From: Sphingomonas sp.
GTDB taxonomy: Bacteria > Pseudomonadota > Alphaproteobacteria > Sphingomonadales > Sphingomonadaceae
DNA length: 64,000 nucleotides
NCBI GenBank assembly: GCA_049318505.1
Contig: JBMOGG010000001.1
Coordinates: 53,677 to 117,676 of the forward strand
Direction of reading: 5' to 3'
The stretch's first letter is position 1; every line of letters starts with the position of its first letter. The translations under genes and the position numbers were made by a program. The notes below the pieces were generated by a model. It ran no database searches. It was given only the letters and a program-made list of their open reading frames with translations, and was not told where the DNA came from. This document shows positions 8,784 to 64,000 of the stretch, in pieces.

Positions 8784-9655
8784 CAGGCGGCACTTTCTGT
8801 TTGCGGGGCCATGGGCTGTGGGGACGGCGCGTTGGCACCGGTCACGGACGTGTCTTCGTGCCGTTTGATGGCTGCCGTCGCTGAGCGCCCGCGCGGGCCG
8901 TTGAAATATTCCTGGATCCAGGGATGGTCGAGGGCGAGCAGCTCGGGAATGGTGCCCACGGCAATCACTTTCTTGTCGGCCAGTACCGCCACCCGATCGC
9001 AAATCGCATAGAGCGTGTCGAGGTCATGGGTGATCAGGAACACGGTCAGGCCCATCGTCTGCTGCAAGTCGTGCGTCAGCTGGTCGAATGCGGCCGCGCC
9101 GATCGGGTCGAGCCCTGCCGTCGGTTCGTCGAGGAACAGCAGTTCGGGATCGAGAGCGAGCGCACGGGCGAGGCCGGCCCGCTTGCGCATACCGCCCGAC
9201 AGTTCCGACGGATATTTGGGCCCTGCATCGGCGGGCAGGCCTGCGAGGTCGACTTTGTAGCGGGCAATCTCGTCGAGCAAGGCCTTCGACAGCCTGGGAT
9301 AGAATTCGCGCAAGGGAAACTCGACATTCTCGGCGACCGTCAGCGTGGAAAAGAGCGCCCCGCCCTGGAACAACACGCCCCAGCGACGGCGGATGTCGTC
9401 ATTGTCCTCGTTGTCCTGGCGCATATCCTCGCCGAACACGCTGATCTCACCGGCCTCGGGCATTTGGAGCCCGATGATCGATCGCATCAGCACCGACTTG
9501 CCAGTGCCCGATCCGCCGACGACGCCCATGATTTCGCCGCGGCGCACGTCGAGATCGAGCCCATCGTGGACAACCGCATCGCCGAAACGGTTCGTCAGGC
9601 CACGGACGCAGACGACGATTTCGCTGTCGGGGCCCGGACTGATTCCTTCGGTCAT
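8783..9655 (-). CDS. ABC transporter ATP-binding protein (MlaF-like)
   Basis: Walker A GGSGTGKS, signature LSGGMRKR, Walker B LLFLDEPT. Confidence 0.9.
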   Translation of the reverse strand: MTEGISPGPDSEIVVCVRGLTNRFGDAVVHDGLDLDVRRGEIMGVVGGSGTGKSVLMRSIIGLQMPEAGEISVFGEDMRQDNEDNDDIRRRWGVLFQGGALFSTLTVAENVEFPLREFYPRLSKALLDEIARYKVDLAGLPADAGPKYPSELSGGMRKRAGLARALALDPELLFLDEPTAGLDPIGAAAFDQLTHDLQQTMGLTVFLITHDLDTLYAICDRVAVLADKKVIAVGTIPELLALDHPWIQEYFNGPRGRSATAAIKRHEDTSVTGANAPSPQPMAPQTESAA

Positions 9656-54068: not shown

Positions 54069-55673
54069 ATGACGATGACCAATCCCGCCGCCCTCCGCGC
54101 CCCAGCCCTCGCCTCCAAGGCCTGGCCCTATGAAGAGGCGCGCAAACTGCTGAAGCGCTACCCTGACGGCAAGCCCCCCAAGAACGGGCAGGCCGCGCCG
54201 GTCATCTTCGAGACAGGCTATGGCCCGTCGGGGCTCCCGCACATCGGCACCTTCAACGAAGTGTTGCGTACGACGATGGTCCGCCATGCCTTTCAGGCGA
54301 TGAGCGACGCACCGACGCGGTTGATCGAATTCTCGGACGACATGGACGGCCTGCGCAAGGTGCCGGACAATGTCCCCAACCAGGCGATGCTGGCCGAACA
54401 TCTCGGCAAGCCGCTCAGCCGCATCCCCGACCCGTTCGGCAAGTTCGAAAGCTTCGCGCACCACAACAACGCGATGCTGCGCGACTTCCTCGACCGGTTC
54501 GGGTTCGAGTACGAGTTCATTTCGTCGTCGTCGCAATATGAAAGCGGTGCGTTCGACGAGGCCTTGCGCGGCATTCTGCGTCACTATGACGCGATCATGG
54601 GTGTCATGCTGCCGACGCTGCGCAAGGAACGCGCGGCCAGCTATTCGCCGGTCCTCCCGATCAGCGAGAAGACCGGCGTCGTGATGCAGGTCCCGGTCGA
54701 AGTCGTCGATGCCGAGGCGGGGCTGATCCGCTTCGAAGATCCCAGCTATGGCGGCGGCGGCGACATGGTCACGCAGAGCATCTTCGGCGGCAAGGCCAAG
54801 CTGCAGTGGAAAGTCGACTGGGCGATGCGCTGGGTCGCGCTCGGCGTCGATTACGAGATGTACGGCAAGGACCTGATCGACAGCGGCATCCAGTCGGGCA
54901 AGATCGCGCGCATCCTGGGCGGCCGCCCGCCTGAAGGGTTCGTCTACGAGATGTTCCTCGATGAGGCAGGCGAAAAGATTTCGAAATCGAAGGGCAATGG
55001 CCTGACGCTTGAGCAATGGCTCGAATATGGCACGCAGGAAAGCCTGTCCTTCTACGCCTATCGCGAACCAAAGAAGGCCAAGTCGCTGCACATCGGGGTC
55101 ATCCCGCGCGCGGTCGACGAATATTTCCAGTTTCGCGGGAATTACGCAGAGCAAGCGCTCGAGCAGCAGCTCGGCAATCCTGTGCACCATATCCACAATG
55201 GCGCCGTGCCGGGCGAGGTGCCGCCGGTGACGTTTGGCCTGTTGCTCAACCTGGCAGGAGTGCTCGGGGCGGGCGCGACGGCGGAGCAGGTGCGCGGCTA
55301 CCTGTCGAACTATGTGGCGGGGGCGATCACGCCTGAACTCGATGCGCTGATCAGCCATGCGCTGGCTTACAACCGCGATTACGTCGCGCCGACGCTTCGG
55401 CGTCGCAAGCCCGAGGGCGTCGAGGTGGCGGCGCTCGAACGGCTCGACCGCGAGCTGGAAGCCGTGCCGGCCGACGCGACCGCGACCGCGCTCCAGAACA
55501 TCGTCTACGCCATCGGTAACGAAGGCGGGTTCGAGCAGCTCCGCGACTGGTTCAAGGCGCTGTATGAGACGCTGCTGGGCAGCAGCGCCGGGCCGCGCAT
55601 GGGCAGCTTCATCGCGCTCTACGGCGTCGAGCCGTCGCGCGCGCTGATCAGGGAAGCATTGGACCAGGCGTAA
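54069..55673 (+). CDS. lysK: lysine--tRNA ligase, class I
   Basis: HIGT (HIGH-type) and KISKSKGNG (KMSKS-type) motifs; class I LysRS length. Confidence 0.92.
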   Translation: MTMTNPAALRAPALASKAWPYEEARKLLKRYPDGKPPKNGQAAPVIFETGYGPSGLPHIGTFNEVLRTTMVRHAFQAMSDAPTRLIEFSDDMDGLRKVPDNVPNQAMLAEHLGKPLSRIPDPFGKFESFAHHNNAMLRDFLDRFGFEYEFISSSSQYESGAFDEALRGILRHYDAIMGVMLPTLRKERAASYSPVLPISEKTGVVMQVPVEVVDAEAGLIRFEDPSYGGGGDMVTQSIFGGKAKLQWKVDWAMRWVALGVDYEMYGKDLIDSGIQSGKIARILGGRPPEGFVYEMFLDEAGEKISKSKGNGLTLEQWLEYGTQESLSFYAYREPKKAKSLHIGVIPRAVDEYFQFRGNYAEQALEQQLGNPVHHIHNGAVPGEVPPVTFGLLLNLAGVLGAGATAEQVRGYLSNYVAGAITPELDALISHALAYNRDYVAPTLRRRKPEGVEVAALERLDRELEAVPADATATALQNIVYAIGNEGGFEQLRDWFKALYETLLGSSAGPRMGSFIALYGVEPSRALIREALDQA

Positions 55674-56037
55674 AGCTTCGCCGCGCGAGCACGATTGCCG
55701 CAATCATGGCAGCCTCGATAAGCATCGGCGGGAAGGTCGTCGCAACCACGCCGTCGAGCGCGATGCTGACGAACCGCCCAGTCAGCGCCGTGCCCAGCAG
55801 CACCAGCGGGACGATCAGCGGCTTCGGATCGGTCCGCCATGCCCCGGCGAGCGCGAAGAGTCCGCCGGTCAGGAAAAAGGCGGGAAAGTCGGCGCGGGCG
55901 GTGGCCAGCCCTTGAATGCCGATCGGCGACAGCGCGAACTGCGCGGCCAACTTGGTCGGATTGAATAGAAAACCCAGTCCGATCAGAATGTTGAACAGGC
56001 CAGCCAGCCCGAGAACTCCCCGCATTGCTTGACGCAT
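55648..56037 (-). CDS. small 4-TM membrane protein (DUF4345-like)
   Basis: Hydrophobic 129-aa ORF with an AGGAGAGGG RBS before the ATG at 56037. Overlaps the lysK 3' end by 26 nt. Confidence 0.6.
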   Translation of the reverse strand: MRQAMRGVLGLAGLFNILIGLGFLFNPTKLAAQFALSPIGIQGLATARADFPAFFLTGGLFALAGAWRTDPKPLIVPLVLLGTALTGRFVSIALDGVVATTFPPMLIEAAMIAAIVLARRSFTPGPMLP

Positions 56038-56052
56038 AATTATCCCTCTCCT

Positions 56053-56083
56053 GATCTAATGGCATTGCCAATGCCATTAGATC
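56053..56083. promoter_or_regulatory. perfect 31-nt palindrome in a divergent promoter gap (core TGGCAT-N5-ATGCCA)
   Basis: gatctaatggcattg-c-caatgccattagatc; the 15-bp arms were checked base by base. Confidence 0.7.
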
Positions 56084-56121
56084 GGCCGATAGTCGAACCC
56101 TGATTGGAGAGGGGGGCGATA

Positions 56122-57210
56122 ATGCGCGCACGGACCAAGATCTTGCTCGCCCTGGCGGGCATCATACTCACTGTTTTTGTCGCCTTCCGCTGGCAGCAGG
56201 CGACGATCGGTGCGGCGCTGTTCGAACGGGCCGTTGGCGAGCGCGTCGGCCGCGACAGCACGGCCGACCTGCCCGACGGGCTGCACGTCGCACTGTGCGG
56301 CACCGGCTCGCCGCTGCCCAATCCCGTCCGCGCGGGGCCGTGTACTGTCGTCATCGCCGGCAAGCAGGTCTTTGTCGTCGACATCGGCGAGGGGGGCGGG
56401 CGCAATATCAACCTCATGGGCCTGCCACTCGGGCGGCTATCCGGCGTGTTCCTGACCCATTTTCATTCCGACCATATAGACGGCATGGGCCCGCTTATGC
56501 TCACCCGCTGGACGGCGGGTACCAACACTTCCCCGTTGCCCGTTTATGGCCCGACCGGCGTCGACCGCGTCGTGGCGGGGTTCAATGCCGCCTACGCGAT
56601 CGACGACACCTATCGCACCGGGCATCACGGCCCCGCGATCGCGCCGCCGACCGGTGCGGGCGGCATTGCGATGCCCTATGCACTGCCCGAACCCGGCCTG
56701 GGTGATGTGGTCGTCGTCCTCGAGAAGGACGGGCTGAAGGTCACCGCGATCCGTGTCGATCATGGCCCGGTCAAACCGGCGGTTGGCTATCGCTTCGACT
56801 ACAAGGGCCGCTCGGTCGTGATCAGCGGCGACACGGCGAAATCGGCAACGTTGGTAGCCGCAGCCAAGGGCGCTGACTTGCTCGTCCACGAAGCACTGCA
56901 GCCAAAACTGGTGAAGATGATGACCGCAAGTTTCGCGGCGAAGGACATGAAGAACCTTGCCCAGATCACGCGCGATATCCTCAACTACCACACGACGCCC
57001 GAAGAGGCGGCGGAGGTTGCGAAGGCGACGGGTGCGAAGGAACTGGTGCTCAGTCACATCGTCCCGTCAATCCCGTCGAAACTTTTCTACCCGGCTTTTC
57101 TCGGCGATGCCGCATCGCGCTACGCGGGCCCGATCGTGGTGGGTGAAGACGGGATGATGTTCAGCCTGCCCGCAGGCAAAACCGATATCGTCCAGAGCCG
57201 ATTGATGTAA
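56122..57210 (+). CDS. membrane-anchored MBL fold metallo-hydrolase (RNase Z-like)
   Basis: THFHSDHIDG motif and an N-terminal TM. GGAGAGGGGGG RBS precedes the ATG at 56122. Confidence 0.8.
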   Translation: MRARTKILLALAGIILTVFVAFRWQQATIGAALFERAVGERVGRDSTADLPDGLHVALCGTGSPLPNPVRAGPCTVVIAGKQVFVVDIGEGGGRNINLMGLPLGRLSGVFLTHFHSDHIDGMGPLMLTRWTAGTNTSPLPVYGPTGVDRVVAGFNAAYAIDDTYRTGHHGPAIAPPTGAGGIAMPYALPEPGLGDVVVVLEKDGLKVTAIRVDHGPVKPAVGYRFDYKGRSVVISGDTAKSATLVAAAKGADLLVHEALQPKLVKMMTASFAAKDMKNLAQITRDILNYHTTPEEAAEVAKATGAKELVLSHIVPSIPSKLFYPAFLGDAASRYAGPIVVGEDGMMFSLPAGKTDIVQSRLM

Positions 57211-57258
57211 TCTGGTACCCTCCCGAAAGAGGAGACGCGTAAAATAGGGGAGGTCCTG

Positions 57259-59151
57259 ATGAAACTGCCGATGAAGACGTCGCTGGCGCTGGGCATCGCT
57301 CTGCTTGCGCTCGCAGCGTGCCAGCGCACGGGCAGCATGAACGGCAAGACCGATGCCGATGTGAAACTGACCGCCTATCCTGAGCGGGTCTACTGGGGCG
57401 ACACGCACCTTCATACCAGCAACTCGGTCGACGCCTTCGCCTTTGGAGCAAAGCTAGGGCCTGAAGATGCGCTGCGGTTCGCGCGCGGCACGGAAGTGAC
57501 AGCGACCGGTGGCCTCAAGGCAAAGCTTGACCGGCCGCTCGACTTCCTCGTGATCGCCGATCACTCGGGCGGGCTGGGCGCGACGCAGGCGCTCTATGAT
57601 GCGCCGCGCCTGTTCATCCGCGACCCTACCCTGCTGCGCTGGCATGACACGATGCATGAAGGGCCGGCAGGGCGCCTGAAGGTGACCGCCGAGCTGATCG
57701 ACCTTGCCGGCCGCAACGCACTGCCTCCCGCGTTCCGCGATCGCGAGGGACAGAATAAACGGACGGCCAAGATCTGGACAACGCACAGCAGTATCGTCGA
57801 ACGCTATAACGAGCCCGGCAAGTTCACCGCTTTCATCGGGTTCGAGTACTCGCTGATGCCGCGCGGCGACAATATGCACCGCGTCGTCATGTTCCGCGAC
57901 GGTAAGGACAAGACCGATAAGGTCCTGCCCTATGATCCGGGACAAGGCGACGCGCCGGTCAGCCAGCTGTGGGACTATATGGACGCCTATCAAAAGGCGA
58001 CGGGCGGGCAGGTGCTCGCCATTCCGCACAACAGCAATGTGTCGAGTGGATTGATGTTCGAGATGGTCGGCCCCGGTGGTGGGCCGATGACGGCGGCCTA
58101 TGCCCGCCGGCGCGCAGGGCACGAGCCGCTGGTTGAGGTGACACAAATCAAGGGCGACAGCGAGGCGCACCCTTTTCTTTCGCCCAACGACGAATTTGCC
58201 GATTTCGGCAAGGCCGGCTGGGACATCGGCAACCTGACGATGCAGCGCAAATCAACGCCCGACATGCAGGCGGGCAATTACGTGCGTGAAGCGTTGAAGC
58301 GGGGCCTTGCCATCGAGGCGCGCACCGGCGTCAACCCGTATAAGTTCGGCCTGATCGGCTCGACGGACAGCCACACCGGCCTTGCGACGACCGATGAAAA
58401 CAACTTCTTCGGCAAGCATTCGGGCGTTGAGCCTGGCCCCATGCGCGCGTCGGCTCCTCAGAATCTTGGCAACACGCAAGGGCGCTTTGGCTGGCAGTAT
58501 CTGGCCGGCGGCTATGCGGGCGTCTGGGCACGGGGCAATTCGCGCAGTGCGATCTTCGACGCGATGCTACGCAAGGAAACCTATGCGACCAGCGGCCCGC
58601 GGATGACCGTGCGCTTCTTCGGCGGGTGGAATTTTGGTACCGATGCGCTGAAGGGCGACTGGGTCAAGGCCGCCTATGCGGCAGGCGTTCCGATGGGCGG
58701 TGACCTAAGCGGACCCAAGGGCGCGCCGAAGTTCATCGTTTCTGCGCTCAAGGACCCAATCGGCGCGAACCTTGACCGCGTCCAGATCGTCAAGGGCTGG
58801 ATCGATGCGACCGGCACGCTGCACGAGAAGATCTTCAATGTCGTCTGGAGCAATCCCGAAACGCGCAAAGCTGTCGGCGACAAGCTGACGCCGGTCGGCG
58901 ACACCGTCGATATTGCGACCGCGAGCTACAAGAATACCATCGGCGCCCCGCAACTGGCGACAGTGTGGACCGATCCCGAATTCAACGCGGCACAAAAAGC
59001 ATTCTACTACGTCCGGGTGCTCGAAATCCCGACACCGCGCTGGGTGCTGTTCGACGCGCTGCGCTACAAGGCAAAGCTGCTGCCCGGCACACGCCTGAAG
59101 GACCAGGAGCGCGCCTATACCTCGCCGATCTGGTATCACCCCAAGGGATGA
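57259..59151 (+). CDS. DUF3604 domain-containing lipoprotein
   Basis: Lipobox LLALAAC and YWGDTHLHTSNSVDAF (PHP-like metal site); 630 aa. Confidence 0.8.
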   Translation: MKLPMKTSLALGIALLALAACQRTGSMNGKTDADVKLTAYPERVYWGDTHLHTSNSVDAFAFGAKLGPEDALRFARGTEVTATGGLKAKLDRPLDFLVIADHSGGLGATQALYDAPRLFIRDPTLLRWHDTMHEGPAGRLKVTAELIDLAGRNALPPAFRDREGQNKRTAKIWTTHSSIVERYNEPGKFTAFIGFEYSLMPRGDNMHRVVMFRDGKDKTDKVLPYDPGQGDAPVSQLWDYMDAYQKATGGQVLAIPHNSNVSSGLMFEMVGPGGGPMTAAYARRRAGHEPLVEVTQIKGDSEAHPFLSPNDEFADFGKAGWDIGNLTMQRKSTPDMQAGNYVREALKRGLAIEARTGVNPYKFGLIGSTDSHTGLATTDENNFFGKHSGVEPGPMRASAPQNLGNTQGRFGWQYLAGGYAGVWARGNSRSAIFDAMLRKETYATSGPRMTVRFFGGWNFGTDALKGDWVKAAYAAGVPMGGDLSGPKGAPKFIVSALKDPIGANLDRVQIVKGWIDATGTLHEKIFNVVWSNPETRKAVGDKLTPVGDTVDIATASYKNTIGAPQLATVWTDPEFNAAQKAFYYVRVLEIPTPRWVLFDALRYKAKLLPGTRLKDQERAYTSPIWYHPKG

Positions 59152-59963
59152 CGCTTTGGGCATATGCCAGGCGGCTCGTGCGCGAGCCGCTAGTGCATTT
59201 CCTTGTTGCAGGCGCGCTGATTTTCGCCGTCTGGGGCGGCGGGGGCGACGTCGCCGACCGGTCGATCACGGTGAACGAAGCGCAGGTGCGTGCGCTGACC
59301 GAACAGTGGGAACAGCAATGGCACCGCCAGCCGACTCCTGCCGAAATCGACGGGCTGATCCGCGACCTCATCAAGGACGAGGTCTACTACCGCGAGGCGC
59401 TCCTTATGGGCCTCGACAAGGATGACCTCATCATTCGGCGGCGCCTGCGATCGAAGATGGAGTTTTTGGTCGCGGCGCAGGCCGAGAACGAGGCACCGAG
59501 CGACGCTGCCCTGCAGAGCTGGCTCGATGGGCACCGGCGCGATTATGCGACAGCCCCGGCGCTGAGTTTCGACCAGATCTATGTCGGCAGCGATATCGGC
59601 CGCGCTGCCACCGCGCTCGTGGACCTCGAAAAGGGCGCCGACCCGGCGCGCATCGCTTTGCCCCTGTCCGTGCCCCCAACGCTCGACAATGCGTCATCGG
59701 GGGATGTCGATCGCCAGTTCGGTGATGGCTTTGCCAAGGCCGTCGCCGTCCAGCCGCTCGGTCGCTGGGCAGGGCCTGTGGCGTCGGGTTTCGGGCAACA
59801 CCTCGTCCGCCTGCGCAAGCTGACCCCCGGCGCGCTGCCGCCGCTGTCAGCCGTGCGCATGGCGGTCGAGAACGACTGGCGCGAGGCGAACCGCACAGCC
59901 CGAGAGAACGCCGCCTATCAGGCGCTGCTCGACGGCTACACCATCCGGATCGCCAAGCCCTGA
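59148..59963 (+). CDS. membrane-anchored peptidyl-prolyl isomerase-like (parvulin/SurA-type) protein
   Basis: N-terminal TM (LVHFLVAGALIFAVW). ATGA overlap with the DUF3604 gene. The family call rests on remembered cluster context. Confidence 0.55.
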   Translation: MTLWAYARRLVREPLVHFLVAGALIFAVWGGGGDVADRSITVNEAQVRALTEQWEQQWHRQPTPAEIDGLIRDLIKDEVYYREALLMGLDKDDLIIRRRLRSKMEFLVAAQAENEAPSDAALQSWLDGHRRDYATAPALSFDQIYVGSDIGRAATALVDLEKGADPARIALPLSVPPTLDNASSGDVDRQFGDGFAKAVAVQPLGRWAGPVASGFGQHLVRLRKLTPGALPPLSAVRMAVENDWREANRTARENAAYQALLDGYTIRIAKP

Positions 59964-60940
59964 TGCGCATGTGGCTGTGGCTTGCCGTGCTTGGGCTGCT
60001 CGCTTCAGGCACCGCCCAGGCCGACGAGCTCCGTCCCGGCTATCTCGAAATCACCCAACACGACGCGCGAGCCTGGCATGTGCGGCTCAAGGCTCCGGTC
60101 AAAGGCGGCCTCGCCACGAACGCCAATCCGGCGATGCCCGGCTTCTGCACTGCAGGCCCGCCCGTCCGCAGTCTCGCGCAAGGATCGCTCTATTCGGACT
60201 GGCGCTACGATTGTGCGCAGTCGCTCGTCGGGGCAAAGGTCGGCCTGTCGGGCCTCGACAAGACCGTCACCGATGCGCTGGTGCGGATCGCGCCGCTGGG
60301 GCGCACGGTGCAGGCAGTGCGGCTGACAAGTGCGGCGCCCATGACCCAAGTGGCCGCCCGCGCCGGGTCCATGCAGGTAGCCGGCACCTATTTCGTGCTC
60401 GGCATCGAACACATCCTCAGCGGCTACGACCACCTGCTTTTCGTGCTGTCGCTGGTGCTGTTGCTCGGTAGCGGCTGGGTCGTCGCGCGGACGGTGACGG
60501 CCTTCACCATCGCGCATTCGATCACGCTGGTGGGCGCGACCTTGGGCTTTCTTGGTGTCAGCCAGCAGCCGGTGGAAATCTGCATTGCGCTGTCGATCGT
60601 CTTTCTCGCGGTCGAGGTGGTAAAGCGCGACACTGCGCAACCGCGCCTGTCCGAACGCATCCCTTGGGCGGTGGCCTTCCTGTTCGGCCTGCTTCACGGC
60701 TTCGGCTTTGCCGGCGCGCTGGCCGAAATCGGCATGCCTGAGGGCGAAGTGCCGGTGGCGCTGCTCACCTTCAACCTGGGGGTCGAGGCGGGACAGTTGG
60801 CGATCGTCGTCGTGGCTCTGGGTGTTCTCGCTCTGCTTGGCCGCGTCTCGCGTGGGATGCGGCGTATCTCCGAACGTTTTGCCGCCTATACGATCGGGAT
60901 CACGGCCAGCTTCTGGCTGATCGCGCGCGCGGTCAGCTGA
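59963..60940 (+). CDS. HupE/UreJ family protein with ~130-aa N-terminal periplasmic extension
   Basis: GIEHILSGYDHLLFVLSL and GLLHGFGFAG motifs and a signal peptide. TGATG overlap with the upstream gene. Confidence 0.85.
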   Translation: MRMWLWLAVLGLLASGTAQADELRPGYLEITQHDARAWHVRLKAPVKGGLATNANPAMPGFCTAGPPVRSLAQGSLYSDWRYDCAQSLVGAKVGLSGLDKTVTDALVRIAPLGRTVQAVRLTSAAPMTQVAARAGSMQVAGTYFVLGIEHILSGYDHLLFVLSLVLLLGSGWVVARTVTAFTIAHSITLVGATLGFLGVSQQPVEICIALSIVFLAVEVVKRDTAQPRLSERIPWAVAFLFGLLHGFGFAGALAEIGMPEGEVPVALLTFNLGVEAGQLAIVVVALGVLALLGRVSRGMRRISERFAAYTIGITASFWLIARAVS

Positions 60941-61745
60941 TCCGCGTTGCCGACGATCGGAACAGCGGCCATGCCAGCTGTTCGGCGGCGGTCACCGGTG
61001 GCAAATTCTCGACACCGATCTCCGCTGGATAGCGGCGCGTGATCTTCGCCGTGCCGAACAGCACGTCCCACAAGAACAGCAGATTGCCGAAATTGCCCTT
61101 GTAGTTGGTGATCCCGTCCGACGCATATTTGCCGTGGTGCGCGCTGTGCGTCGCCGGGGTCGAGATCGTCCGCTCCACCACCCACATCACGGGCGACAGC
61201 CATTTGACTGCGTAAAGGGGCCGATCCCACGGCACATCCGAATGCGCGGCGATGATGACCAGCATCTTTACGCAGACGTACGGCACATAGACCGGTCCCA
61301 GGCCCAAATAGATCAGCGCGCCCGAAAACCACAGGCTGGGCATCGTCAGATAGTAGAAGAAGTTGTTCCGGTAGACGATCCGCACCGACATATATTCGCC
61401 GCTGTGGTGCGCACGGTGGAGATTGTAGAGCCACGCAAAGCTGTGCGATGCGCGGTGCCACCAATATTGCATCATGTCGTCGAAGACAAGGAACAGCGCG
61501 ACCTGCGCGAGGATCGGCAGCCCTGCGAAGGCGTCTGCAGCATCGGGCACCGCGACCGCCATCAGCGCATAGGCCATGAGAAGGATCGCCGGCTGCGTCA
61601 CCGTGAGCAGCACGACCGACCCCACCACCTCGACCCAGGCATCCGCGCGGGTCTGGTTCGGCTTGTGAAAGAAGTCCGTCCGGAACATCTCGACCAGCGC
61701 GAAGGCCAGGAAGATGCCGGGAACGATGAGCGCTTCGACCCTCAT
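60933..61745 (-). CDS. fatty acid hydroxylase / sterol desaturase family membrane di-iron enzyme
   Basis: Histidine boxes HRASH, HRAHH and HSAHH. ATGA overlap with the upstream gene at 61742-61745. Confidence 0.85.
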   Translation of the reverse strand: MRVEALIVPGIFLAFALVEMFRTDFFHKPNQTRADAWVEVVGSVVLLTVTQPAILLMAYALMAVAVPDAADAFAGLPILAQVALFLVFDDMMQYWWHRASHSFAWLYNLHRAHHSGEYMSVRIVYRNNFFYYLTMPSLWFSGALIYLGLGPVYVPYVCVKMLVIIAAHSDVPWDRPLYAVKWLSPVMWVVERTISTPATHSAHHGKYASDGITNYKGNFGNLLFLWDVLFGTAKITRRYPAEIGVENLPPVTAAEQLAWPLFRSSATRIS

Positions 61746-62401
61746 GCCGCGTCTCTGCGGGCCAGCCCCTTCTGCGCCATCCGCCATTTCATCTGGTCGA
61801 AGCGATCCTGCCCGTAAAAGGGCTCGTTGTCGAAAACCATCAGCGGCACGCCATAATGGCCGCCGACGCGCTGCGCATCCTGATTGGCCTTGATCGCCGT
61901 ATCATAACGGTCGGGATTGGCGGCGATCTGCGCATCGAGCGTGGCGAGATCGAGTCCCGCGCGCTCGGTGGCGCGCGCCAGGTGATCGCCGACATGCCAG
62001 TCGCGCACCGTGCCGCCAAAGATCAGCGCGCTGACCTCGTCGAGGAAAGCCAGGCCCTTGTCCGCCTCGGTGGCAGCCTGCCCCAATTGCGTCAGGCGAT
62101 AGATATAGGGCTGTTCCTTGGGATAGGTCCGCGTCGCCATGTCCATCACCACCGGGTCGGGGCTCGGCCAGCCAAAGGGCAGACCCAGGAACTCGGCGCA
62201 GCGAAAAATGTCGCGCATAAAATAGGGCAGCCACAGCGGGTCGTTCTTGTCGAAGAATTCGGGCTGGCGGACCGCGATCGGGTAGACGACCCGCACCTTG
62301 CACGCGACGTCGTAATCGCGCTCGAGCGCCACCAGACGCTTGGTCACGAAGTAGCTGTAGGGCGACCGGAACGACCAGTAGAGGTCGTAGCTCAGCGTCA
62401 T
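61742..62401 (-). CDS. 2-hydroxychromene-2-carboxylate isomerase family (DsbA-like) protein
   Basis: LYWSFRSPYSYF N-terminus. ATGA overlap at 62398-62401. Confidence 0.8.
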   Translation of the reverse strand: MTLSYDLYWSFRSPYSYFVTKRLVALERDYDVACKVRVVYPIAVRQPEFFDKNDPLWLPYFMRDIFRCAEFLGLPFGWPSPDPVVMDMATRTYPKEQPYIYRLTQLGQAATEADKGLAFLDEVSALIFGGTVRDWHVGDHLARATERAGLDLATLDAQIAANPDRYDTAIKANQDAQRVGGHYGVPLMVFDNEPFYGQDRFDQMKWRMAQKGLARRDAA

Positions 62402-62826
62402 GCCCCCGCCCCGCCCGACAGCGTGCCGCGCGTCTTGATGTTGAGCTGCCCCGCCAGGCCCGCCGTCCGATGGACCGAGATCGCCTGGTACTCGGGGTCG
62501 CGCACCATCTCCATCATCGCAGCGAGCGACGGATATTCGGCCAGTGCTACCATGTCCCACAGCTCTTCGACGTCGCCTATCATCAGGCCGGTGACGGGCC
62601 CTGCATAGCCCGCGGTCCCCCCGACCTTCTCGATGAAGGCGCGCACCGCCATGCCGTAGCGCAGATAGGCGGCAGCACCCGGGAGGTCGGCATCGCTGCC
62701 ATCGGGGTATTCGGCCTTGTCCTTGAACTTCAGCAGGTTGACCATCACGAACGGCCCATCCTCAGCGCCGCCGAAAAAGGCCCTGCCCTGTTCGGCTGAC
62801 GGCGTGACCCTATTGATGACGTTCAT
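62398..62826 (-). CDS. DUF1330 domain-containing protein
   Basis: DUF1330-like pattern (VMVNLLKFK..., [20 protein letters not shown]). ATGA overlap at 62823-62826. Confidence 0.75.
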
Positions 62827-63719
62827 GGCATTGCGACCTCTAGGATGCAGTCGACGAACCCGGCGGGGTCGTCTTCCTGGATGAAATGCCCACCCTTTAG
62901 CGTGGTATGCCGCTGCCCTGCAGTCCCGGGGACGCGCCCGACGAACAGCGCCTCGCCGCCGCGCGTGATCGGGTCGCTGTCGCTGAAGCAGCACAGGAAC
63001 GGCTTGTCCCAGCGGTCGAGCACGTCCCACGCCTTCAGCTGGTCGGCAACCGCGACATTGGGGCCCAACGGGACGAAGGTCGGGAAAATGCGGGCTCCGG
63101 CTTTGTAGCGGCCGTCGGGGAAGGGCGCATCATAAGCGGCGATTTCGGCGTCGGACAGGCCCCGCCGCGTCCCCGCTTTCACGATCCGCCCGATCGGAAA
63201 CAGCGGGCTGTATTTTGAAAAGGCGCGCCAGATCGCAAAGGCGCGTGGCGCGGGCTGGCCAGCGGGAAGGCCACCGTTCGACAGCACCACGCCGTTGAAC
63301 CGTTCGGGCAGTGCGGTGACTAGTCGCAAACCGATCAGCGACCCCCAGTCCTGGCACGCCAGCGTGATGTTCTTAAGGTCGAGCGTTTCGATCCAGCTGC
63401 GCATCCACGCCACATGGCGCGCATAGCTGTAATCGCTTTTCGCCATGGGCTTGTCTGATCGCCCAAAACCGATCAGGTCGGGTGCAACCACGCGCAGGCC
63501 TGACGCCGCAATGGGCCCGATCATGTGGCGATAAAGGTACGACCAAGTCGGCTCGCCATGCATCATCAGCACGACCGGGGCATCGCGCGGACCCTCGTCG
63601 ACATAATGCACGCGCAGCGACGTGCCGTCCTGTGCGTCCGTGATCTGGGCATAATGCGCCGCGAACGGAAAATCGGGGATCGAGCCGAATGCGGCGTCAG
63701 GCGTACGCAGGACCTTCAC
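62823..63719 (-). CDS. haloalkane dehalogenase-like alpha/beta hydrolase
   Basis: [12 protein letters not shown], the nucleophile elbow QDWGS, and a C-terminal GHFIQED. Confidence 0.85.
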
Positions 63720-63745
63720 CAGCTTTTCCCCTCATCCGTAACTAT

Positions 63746-63762
63746 TGGCATATGCGATGCCA
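63746..63762. promoter_or_regulatory. palindrome TGGCAT-atgcg-ATGCCA upstream of the dehalogenase operon
   Basis: Same half-sites, spacing and flanks (cta[a/t]...tt) as the core of the 56053-56083 palindrome. Confidence 0.6.
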
Positions 63763-63797: not shown

Positions 63798-64000
63798 TCA
63801 GTCGGGCACTTTTGCCAATGTGCTGTCGAGCAGGAGCTTGACCACGGCCTGCGCCGTCTCGACCGGCATGGCCTGGTCATGGCGCAGCAACCGCCAGGTC
63901 TGGAAACTGAGGATCACATTTAGCGCCGCCGCACCGACCGGGTCTTGCGCAACCCGTGCCGGCAGCTGCGCTTCGACAATGGACGTCTCCATGGCGAGCA
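63798..64000 (-). CDS. TetR-like transcriptional regulator, C-terminal part only (5' end outside window)
   Basis: The frame is open to the window edge. The C-terminal pattern (ALNVILSFQTWRLLRHDQAMPVETAQAVVKLL) resembles TetR ligand-domain tails. Confidence 0.45.
   Translation of the reverse strand, partial: LAMETSIVEAQLPARVAQDPVGAAALNVILSFQTWRLLRHDQAMPVETAQAVVKLLLDSTLAKVPD

Follow-up and report, generated by a model that had tools for sequence, protein, structure and literature searches.

Classical TetR-family repressor-operator pairs, such as TetR-tetO and QacR-IR1, combine a small, entirely helical regulator, which carries a helix-turn-helix at its N-terminus and a ligand domain at its C-terminus, with a palindromic operator of about 15-30 bp. 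The half-sites of the operator are spaced by one helical turn, and the operator overlaps a promoter, either that of a neighboring gene or that of a divergent one. Such regulators frequently control their own genes, and their regulons are local. Here we describe a gene block in a 64,000-nucleotide stretch of Sphingomonas sp. DNA (assembly GCA_049318505.1, contig JBMOGG010000001.1, positions 53,677 to 117,676 of the forward strand; below, "the window") in which two copies of a palindrome are very probably the operators of a homodimeric TetR-family repressor encoded beside the second copy. The predicted system resembles the classical pairs in all of these respects, but differs from them in that the regulator falls below the Pfam TetR_N threshold and has weak sequence matches to solved TetR proteins, and in that one regulator would serve three to five separate promoters.

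Two described systems come close to this one in gene content. In Rhodococcus, DhaR is a TetR-type regulator. A repressor gene lies beside the haloalkane dehalogenase gene dhaA and is thought to silence it until a halocarbon substrate appears (PMC3414701). Likened by description, the two loci share a repressor gene that adjoins a haloalkane dehalogenase gene. However, the dhaA dehalogenase belongs to subfamily HLD-II and the one described here to HLD-I, with DccA as its closest solved relative, and the partners in the dhaA operon are alcohol and aldehyde dehydrogenases, whereas here they are DUF1330, a DsbA-like protein, sulfatases, and a glutathione S-transferase (GST). BetI is a TetR-family repressor of the bet genes, including the choline sulfatase gene betC in Sinorhizobium, and is similar in that a TetR-type repressor controls an operon with a formylglycine-type sulfatase. 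Unlike in the BetI system, the sulfatases of this regulon score 131 bits against a choline-sulfatase model with a cut-off of 433, the regulator has no recognizable BetI-type domains, and there are no bet genes nearby. The TetR mechanism and repressor control of a haloalkane dehalogenase operon (Rhodococcus dhaA) are known. The literature searched contained no earlier description of the operator, the TetR subfamily, or the dehalogenase-sulfatase regulon, and TGNCAY-N5-RTGNCA with A/T-rich flanks was not found among the TetR operators described there.

Two palindromic sites in promoter gaps of the window

Two copies of one motif lie in promoter gaps, one of them next to a promoter-like box:

56053..56083, no strand assigned: candidate operator site 1, between the divergent DUF4345 and metallo-β-lactamase (MBL)-fold genes; read from the sequence, matrix score 41.2 bits
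63740..63768, no strand assigned: candidate operator site 2, in the gap that separates the end of tetR from the first codon of the dehalogenase gene; core at 63746-63762, A/T-rich flanks, matrix score 23.6 bits
63777..63782, minus strand: TTGACG, a -35-like box 14 nt upstream of site 2 in the direction of the dehalogenase gene

Site 1 is a perfect palindrome of 31 nt, gatctaatggcattg-c-caatgccattagatc, with the core TGGCAT-tgcca-ATGCCA at 56060-56076. The gap to the DUF4345 start codon (ATG at 56037, minus strand) is 15 nt, and that to the MBL start codon (ATG at 56122) is 38 nt. The core of site 2 reads TGGCAT-atgcg-ATGCCA; 26 nt lie between it and the GTG start of the minus-strand dehalogenase gene (63719), and 35 nt separate the stop codon of the tetR-like gene (63798-63800, minus strand) from the site. 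All of these coordinates and distances had been given in a preliminary description of the window and held on re-reading. The same description had assigned identical flanks to the two copies: both are A/T-rich, but they differ in sequence (ctaa/ttag at site 1 and ctat/tttc at site 2). It had also placed the motif in front of two facing operons, which it is, but the number of site-fronted units is three, the DUF4345 gene being the third, divergent at site 1.

The two copies exceeded chance expectation, as had been claimed. TGGCAT-N5-ATGCCA occurred twice in the 64 kb, compared to a mean of 0.01 in dinucleotide-preserving shuffles, and none of 100 such shuffles had two or more exact matches. The degenerate consensus of the family, TGNCAY-N5-RTGNCA, matched only sites 1 and 2 in the window (0.21 expected). 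When up to two mismatches were allowed, there were seven additional matches in the window versus 2.9 expected, which is at chance level. We also scored the window with a symmetrized 29-nt weight matrix built from the core-matching sites of orthologous loci. The third-best position in the window, after the two sites, scored 4.7 bits, and the top score in 50 shuffles was 13.5 bits.

Conservation of the motif and of its target genes among relatives

The motif was conserved upstream of orthologous dehalogenase genes, as expected of the small regulon that the preliminary description had proposed. A genome scan with the dehalogenase protein yielded 80 orthologous loci, mostly from freshwater Sphingomonadales and some from Caulobacterales, and sites were called at a threshold of 14 bits (best shuffle, 12.2). 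In 65 of the 81 non-redundant loci, a site preceded the dehalogenase gene by no more than 120 nt, with a modal distance of 26 nt from core to start. The general form of the palindrome was WWWW-TGNCAY-N5-RTGNCA-WWWW; the A/T-rich flanks emerged strongly in the matrix although they had not been selected for. In an alignment of 64 distinct regions upstream of orthologues, conservation was 95-100% at the core columns T1 G2 C4 A5 and T13 G14 C16 A17, and a TTGAC box at a fixed 14 nt upstream of the site was 98, 98, 98, 82, and 87% conserved at its five positions. The remaining upstream columns carried about 0.2 bit, and the intergenic DNA around the palindrome had diverged. We infer that the TTGAC box is a -35 element.

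The same gene families were fronted by the motif in different gene orders. Of 125 sites in 1.33 Mb, 121 were no more than 300 nt upstream of a member of one of about ten families. These included the HLD-I dehalogenase, TetR, two formylglycine sulfatases (both with the CxPxR formylglycine motif), an arylsulfatase-like MBL hydrolase, GST, DUF4345, and small membrane proteins, with formylglycine-generating enzyme (FGE), DUF1330, and a DsbA-like protein as co-transcribed extras. The DUF4345 and the MBL families were each site-fronted in nine non-redundant loci, and a counterpart of site 1 was kept between the DUF4345, MBL, and GST genes of relatives. In gene maps made with tblastn, the commonest layout among relatives was Sulfatase-1 < membrane proteins < (Cys-rich small protein <) [site] TetR > FGE > [site] dehalogenase > (second dehalogenase / fatty-acid desaturase) DUF1330 > ... 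Sulfatase-2 < GST or MBL < [site] DUF4345 >. A metagenome sample had 154 sites in 0.84 Mb, beside the same families. Because the same families stay behind the motif despite changes in gene order, the two operons of the window and the DUF4345 gene appear to be one functional unit. Comparative genomics thereby supports the earlier proposal of one dimeric regulator for both operons, with binding and repression predicted from sequence.

Association of the motif with a tetR gene

The presence of a tetR gene predicted the presence of the site. All 39 loci with a tetR orthologue in reach had a site upstream of the dehalogenase gene, compared to 26 of 42 loci without one (Fisher p = 6e-6, uncorrected for phylogeny). 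In addition, the tetR gene had a site of its own 50-110 nt upstream in 30 of 38 genome loci. The left half-site of these tetR-upstream sites was often TTGACA, itself a -35-like hexamer. We examined tetR-upstream sites in an independent sample of 80 metagenome loci that had been retrieved with the TetR protein, 76 of which had enough upstream DNA. A tetR-upstream site above threshold was present in 63 of the 76, and several of the others had degenerate sites just below threshold. The TetR-like protein had been put forward as the obvious candidate regulator, and the co-occurrence, the sites in its own promoter, and its predicted TetR fold (below) all point to it.

Homology between two close relatives of the window broke off upstream of tetR, in DNA beyond the end of the window. 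Across the cluster, both contigs (L001 and L002) were 95-99% identical to the window, but at about position 9118, at a distance of 185 nt from the tetR ATG, all homology between the two ceased. The neighbors past the break differed: one contig had a TonB receptor and eutBC, and the other had acyl-CoA genes and an RPE65-like oxygenase. A mobile or recombining block seems to end here.

Proposed mechanism

Based on these results, we favor a model in which each TGNCAY half-site (invariant T1 G2 C4 A5) is read by one helix-turn-helix of a repressor dimer. The two-fold symmetry and the 11 bp between half-site centers are consistent with one dimer per site, and the conserved A/T-rich flanks would stretch the operator to about 29 bp. 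Speculatively, and by analogy with the basic N-terminal arms of other TetR proteins, the A/T-rich DNA may be contacted by a conserved basic stretch at the start of helix 1 of the regulator, DGRRxRSRSSR. We infer binding, repression rather than activation, the dimer stoichiometry, the promoter elements, and an inducer.

At the dehalogenase promoter, the operator would lie between the TTGAC box and the ribosome-binding site and cover the -10 and start region, so that a bound repressor should block RNA polymerase. At site 1, a lone operator would repress both the DUF4345 gene and the operon encoding the MBL protein, DUF3604, a peptidyl-prolyl isomerase (PPIase)-like protein, and HupE. A consensus promoter scan gave a single candidate, TTGCCA-17-GATAGT, in the direction of the MBL gene, with the putative -35 hexamer inside site 1 and the remainder extending past it. 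Release of the repressor by a small-molecule ligand would derepress the three units at once.

Judged by the genes that relatives carry, the regulon may serve to hydrolyze or detoxify alkyl halides and the sulfate esters of alkyl or aryl compounds. The genes behind this suggestion are the HLD-I dehalogenase, the two formylglycine sulfatases with FGE, the arylsulfatase-like MBL protein, GST, and the lipid hydroxylase/desaturase.

Alternative explanations

Several observations weigh against the proposed regulon or qualify it. The weight matrix was derived from the same loci in which sites were counted, and shared ancestry could contribute to the association between tetR and the site. At a spacing of 16-18 nt from the TTGAC box, no sequence matched a -10 hexamer convincingly. 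The wider regulon of relatives centers on sulfatases that the window lacks. The window clade (L001-L010) had no tetR-upstream site (best scores below 10 bits), so the argument from autoregulation rests on relatives. The 26 loci that have a site without tetR had no orthologue of it within 10 kb, and four tetR orthologues in the metagenome sample had neither a site nor target genes nearby; in those genomes a trans-acting arrangement would be needed.

Some of these observations would fit a palindrome that is the operator of a different, unlinked transcription factor, with the TetR-like protein regulating something else. The 26 loci with a site and no nearby tetR are of this kind, as is the tetR of the window clade with no site of its own, and binding of TetR to the sites is a prediction from sequence. 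However, no locus with tetR in reach lacked a site upstream of the dehalogenase gene, most independently retrieved tetR genes had the site in their own promoter (63/76), and no other regulator gene recurred in the mapped loci. We therefore consider an unlinked factor quite improbable, and a repressor encoded by the linked tetR gene the better account of the sites.

The palindromes might instead function as RNA, either as a terminator after tetR or as a 5'-untranslated structure that controls translation or stability. If transcribed, site 1 would form a hairpin of very high stability (z = -4), and site 2 is just downstream of the tetR stop. But site 1 is located between two gene starts, and site 2 in its context folded like shuffled sequences (z = +0.39) and had no T-run. 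No terminator-like site was found at either palindrome, and neither gave an Rfam match at E ≤ 1. Furthermore, the arms did not covary: at the two variable positions, complementary pairs were present in 66 and 67 of 118 sites, versus about 54 if the positions were independent, and the cores were fully complementary in only 34 of the 118. Such nearly independent variation of the arms, with few fully symmetric cores, is expected of protein half-sites and not of a base-paired stem. Given the lack of covariation, of a terminator, and of an Rfam match, and the unremarkable folding of site 2, we rejected a terminator or structured RNA, which we regard as very unlikely.

The sites also resemble sigma-54 promoters (TGGCAC-N5-TTGCW, with GG at -24 and GC at -12), and a palindromic version could fire both ways. 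TGGCAT-N5-ATGC has the spacing of TGGCAC-N5-TTGC, the letters TGGCA...TGC fit at both sites in the window, and both match the GG-N10-GC spacing. This is a resemblance only: in contrast to sigma-54 promoters, in which GG and GC are nearly invariant, both were kept in the direction of the gene in just 21 of 65 orthologous dehalogenase-upstream sites, and common forms of the motif, such as TGACAC-N5-GTGTCA, have GG or GC on neither strand. In addition, conservation was two-fold symmetric and included the A/T-rich flanks, a sigma-70-type TTGAC box was conserved upstream, and no gene for an enhancer-binding protein recurred in the mapped loci. A sigma-54 promoter was rejected because the near-invariant GG/GC pattern did not hold among orthologues, and we give it slightly less credence still than the RNA structures.

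Finally, a dispersed REP-type repeat (repetitive extragenic palindrome), a reading which the preliminary description had itself raised, or a chance recurrence has only the palindromic form in its favor. It was rejected on counts and positions in the window and the sampled loci (two copies in the 64 kb where 0.01 were expected, 121 of 125 sites in 1.33 Mb in the promoter gaps of about ten families, and the 154 metagenome sites in 0.84 Mb beside those same families) and is hardly tenable.

The predicted TetR-family regulator

The regulator is best described as a divergent TetR-family member, an assignment that comes from its predicted structure. The full gene, which extends beyond the window, was available from contigs of the same species (99% identical to the window) and encodes 206-221 amino acids with a typical TetR-like helix-turn-helix stretch. 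By sequence, the N-terminal three-helix DNA-binding domain of the TetR family was weak: Pfam TetR_N (PF00440) matched with E = 0.0019 and 18.4 bits, below the cut-off of 24. Neither Pfam nor NCBIfam gave a confident family, and none of about 980 homologues had a precomputed Pfam domain; sources that name these homologues call them AcrR/TetR family. Sequence matches in the PDB were weak, covered residues ~20-110, and were all to TetR-family proteins (best E = 3.8e-4, profile search).

An AlphaFold model made with an alignment of 28 homologues was all-helical, with 11 helices over residues 51-234 and N-terminal helices at 51-72, 80-87, and 91-98. The pLDDT was mostly 80-95 over residues 60-237 and the N-terminus was disordered. 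The top 50 Foldseek matches in the PDB were all TetR-family proteins with a probability of 1.00; the alignments spanned 176-213 columns of targets with 167-222 residues, and target-normalized TM-scores were 0.43-0.67. Because these matches were all to the TetR family and nearly full length, we place the regulator there. The model has the N-terminal three-helix domain as well as the C-terminal all-helical domain for ligand binding and dimerization (about 9-10 helices in all and ~200 amino acids in the family), and a candidate palindromic operator near the gene and overlapping a promoter, which is usual for the family, was present as site 2 and as the tetR-upstream sites of relatives. The sequence VGLRSVFRHF, in the region of the recognition helix, was invariant in the 28 homologues, which matches the invariant positions of the operator. 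A TetR subfamily that is missed by standard Pfam annotation is now defined along with its probable operator. No plasmid copy of the regulator was found in PLSDB.

Four metagenome loci (L128, L132, L133, and L135) encoded TetR orthologues (68-71% identical), with no operator or regulon family within 8 kb. In the first three of these, tetR directly followed an apparent 3' end of a tRNA gene, as judged by eye. These four genes may be trans-acting copies or island insertions.

Genes of the window block

The block consists of a rightward operon (56122-60940) and a leftward operon (63719-60933) that converge, with the DUF4345 gene to the left of site 1 and tetR at the right end of the window. Genes within the operons overlap or are less than 50 nt apart.

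55648..56037, minus strand: DUF4345-like small membrane protein, divergent from site 1 (Pfam, 24.4 bits against a cut-off of 26.5)
56122..57210, plus strand: MBL-fold hydrolase with HxHxDH (RNase Z / arylsulfatase-like), first gene of the rightward operon (Pfam)
57259..59151, plus strand: DUF3604 protein, alternative start at 57271 (Pfam PF12228, E = 1.7e-235)
59148..59963, plus strand: PPIC-type PPIase-like protein (Rotamase_2; Pfam, gene calls)
59963..60940, plus strand: HupE/UreJ_2 membrane protein, last gene of the rightward operon, convergent with the leftward operon (Pfam PF13795)
60933..61745, minus strand: fatty-acid hydroxylase / sterol desaturase-family membrane enzyme, last gene of the leftward operon (Pfam PF04116, gene calls)
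61742..62401, minus strand: DsbA-like thioredoxin-fold protein (Pfam PF01323, gene calls)
62398..62826, minus strand: DUF1330 protein, overlapping each neighbor by 4 nt (Pfam, gene calls)
62823..63719, minus strand: HLD-I haloalkane dehalogenase-family hydrolase, first gene of the leftward operon (NCBIfam NF002043)
63798..64000, minus strand: TetR-family regulator, C-terminal 66 codons and stop, the remainder lying beyond the end of the window (translation)

The gene at 62823-63719 belongs to the HLD-I subfamily as judged by the family model and its relatives, and dehalogenase activity is predicted. The protein scored 435.5 bits against NF002043 (cut-off 265), and its best solved relative was DccA of Caulobacter (5esr, E = 3e-119, residues 1-288), with DhlA at E ~5e-51. 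The nucleophile motif QDWG and the histidine of GHF can be read in the translation. In many relatives, as in the window, DUF1330 comes after the dehalogenase gene.

The MBL protein may be a sulfatase of SulfAtlas family S4 and not an RNase Z. Its full-length PDB matches were PNGM-1, which is MBL/RNase Z-like (E = 3e-25), and 8gyg, deposited as "Arysulfatase" (E = 1.5e-24). Family S4 comprises MBL-fold arylsulfatases with HxHxDH and at least 30% full-length identity to an AtsA-type arylsulfatase (PMC5066984). The protein has HFHSDH, but its identity appears to be below 30% and the PNGM-1 match is equally good. The longest open reading frame for this gene begins with a TTG at 56104; alignments of orthologues and public gene calls favor the ATG at 56122 (MRAR...), the start chosen previously.

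A structure search found no solved relative of DUF3604. Homologues of the formylglycine sulfatases, FGE, and GST of the relatives' regulon were not present elsewhere in the window.

A wider reading of the regulon

The mechanism itself is ordinary, a local TetR regulon. What it ties together is an HLD-I dehalogenase with sulfatases, FGE, GSTs, and lipid-modifying enzymes under one predicted switch, across many uncultured freshwater alphaproteobacteria. HLD-I enzymes have been characterized mainly on synthetic haloalkanes, and this gene set may hint at the role of haloalkane dehalogenases in nature. The ligand of the TetR protein would point directly to the substrate. The gene context also provides functional leads for DUF3604, DUF1330, DUF4345, and two membrane-protein families without a Pfam match.

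A more specific reading, which we hold tentatively and think unlikely to be right as a whole, is that freshwater Sphingomonadales and Caulobacterales share a conserved regulon, switched by a ligand and devoted to alkyl compounds of natural origin with sulfate-ester and/or halogen groups, such as algal chlorosulfolipids or further lipids that are sulfated or halogenated. HLD-I would act there with the formylglycine sulfatases and FGE, an MBL-type sulfatase, GSTs, and lipid hydroxylases/desaturases, and TetR would sense the substrate. The DUF3604, PPIase, and HupE/UreJ genes of the window clade would then constitute a new metal-dependent hydrolase module standing in for the arylsulfatase of relatives. 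If true, this reading would be relevant to what HLD-I enzymes do in nature and to DUF3604, on which there is essentially no literature.

Variation in gene content among relatives

The genes downstream of the site-fronted MBL or GST gene differed between clades in a comparison that took in L040 and L138-L143. In relatives the arylsulfatase Sulfatase-2 was in this position, and in the window clade DUF3604, the PPIase-like protein, and HupE/UreJ_2 (57259-60940). A paralogue of DUF3604 (38% identity) was within the dehalogenase operon of two other loci (L042 and L043).

A small secreted Cys-rich protein (~83-97 amino acids, with a weak match to Cys_rich_FGFR) was encoded in a site-fronted operon divergent from tetR in many relatives (L026, L033, L047, L048, L087, and others). 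These operons also held membrane-protein families of 210 and 154 amino acids without a Pfam match and a family with a weak match to DUF423, and they all ended in a membrane-anchored sulfatase.

Tandem dehalogenase paralogues were present in many relatives (L033, L038, L039, L044, L050, L053, L062, L074, L085, and many metagenome loci), and in several of these a fatty-acid desaturase gene was inserted in the dehalogenase operon.

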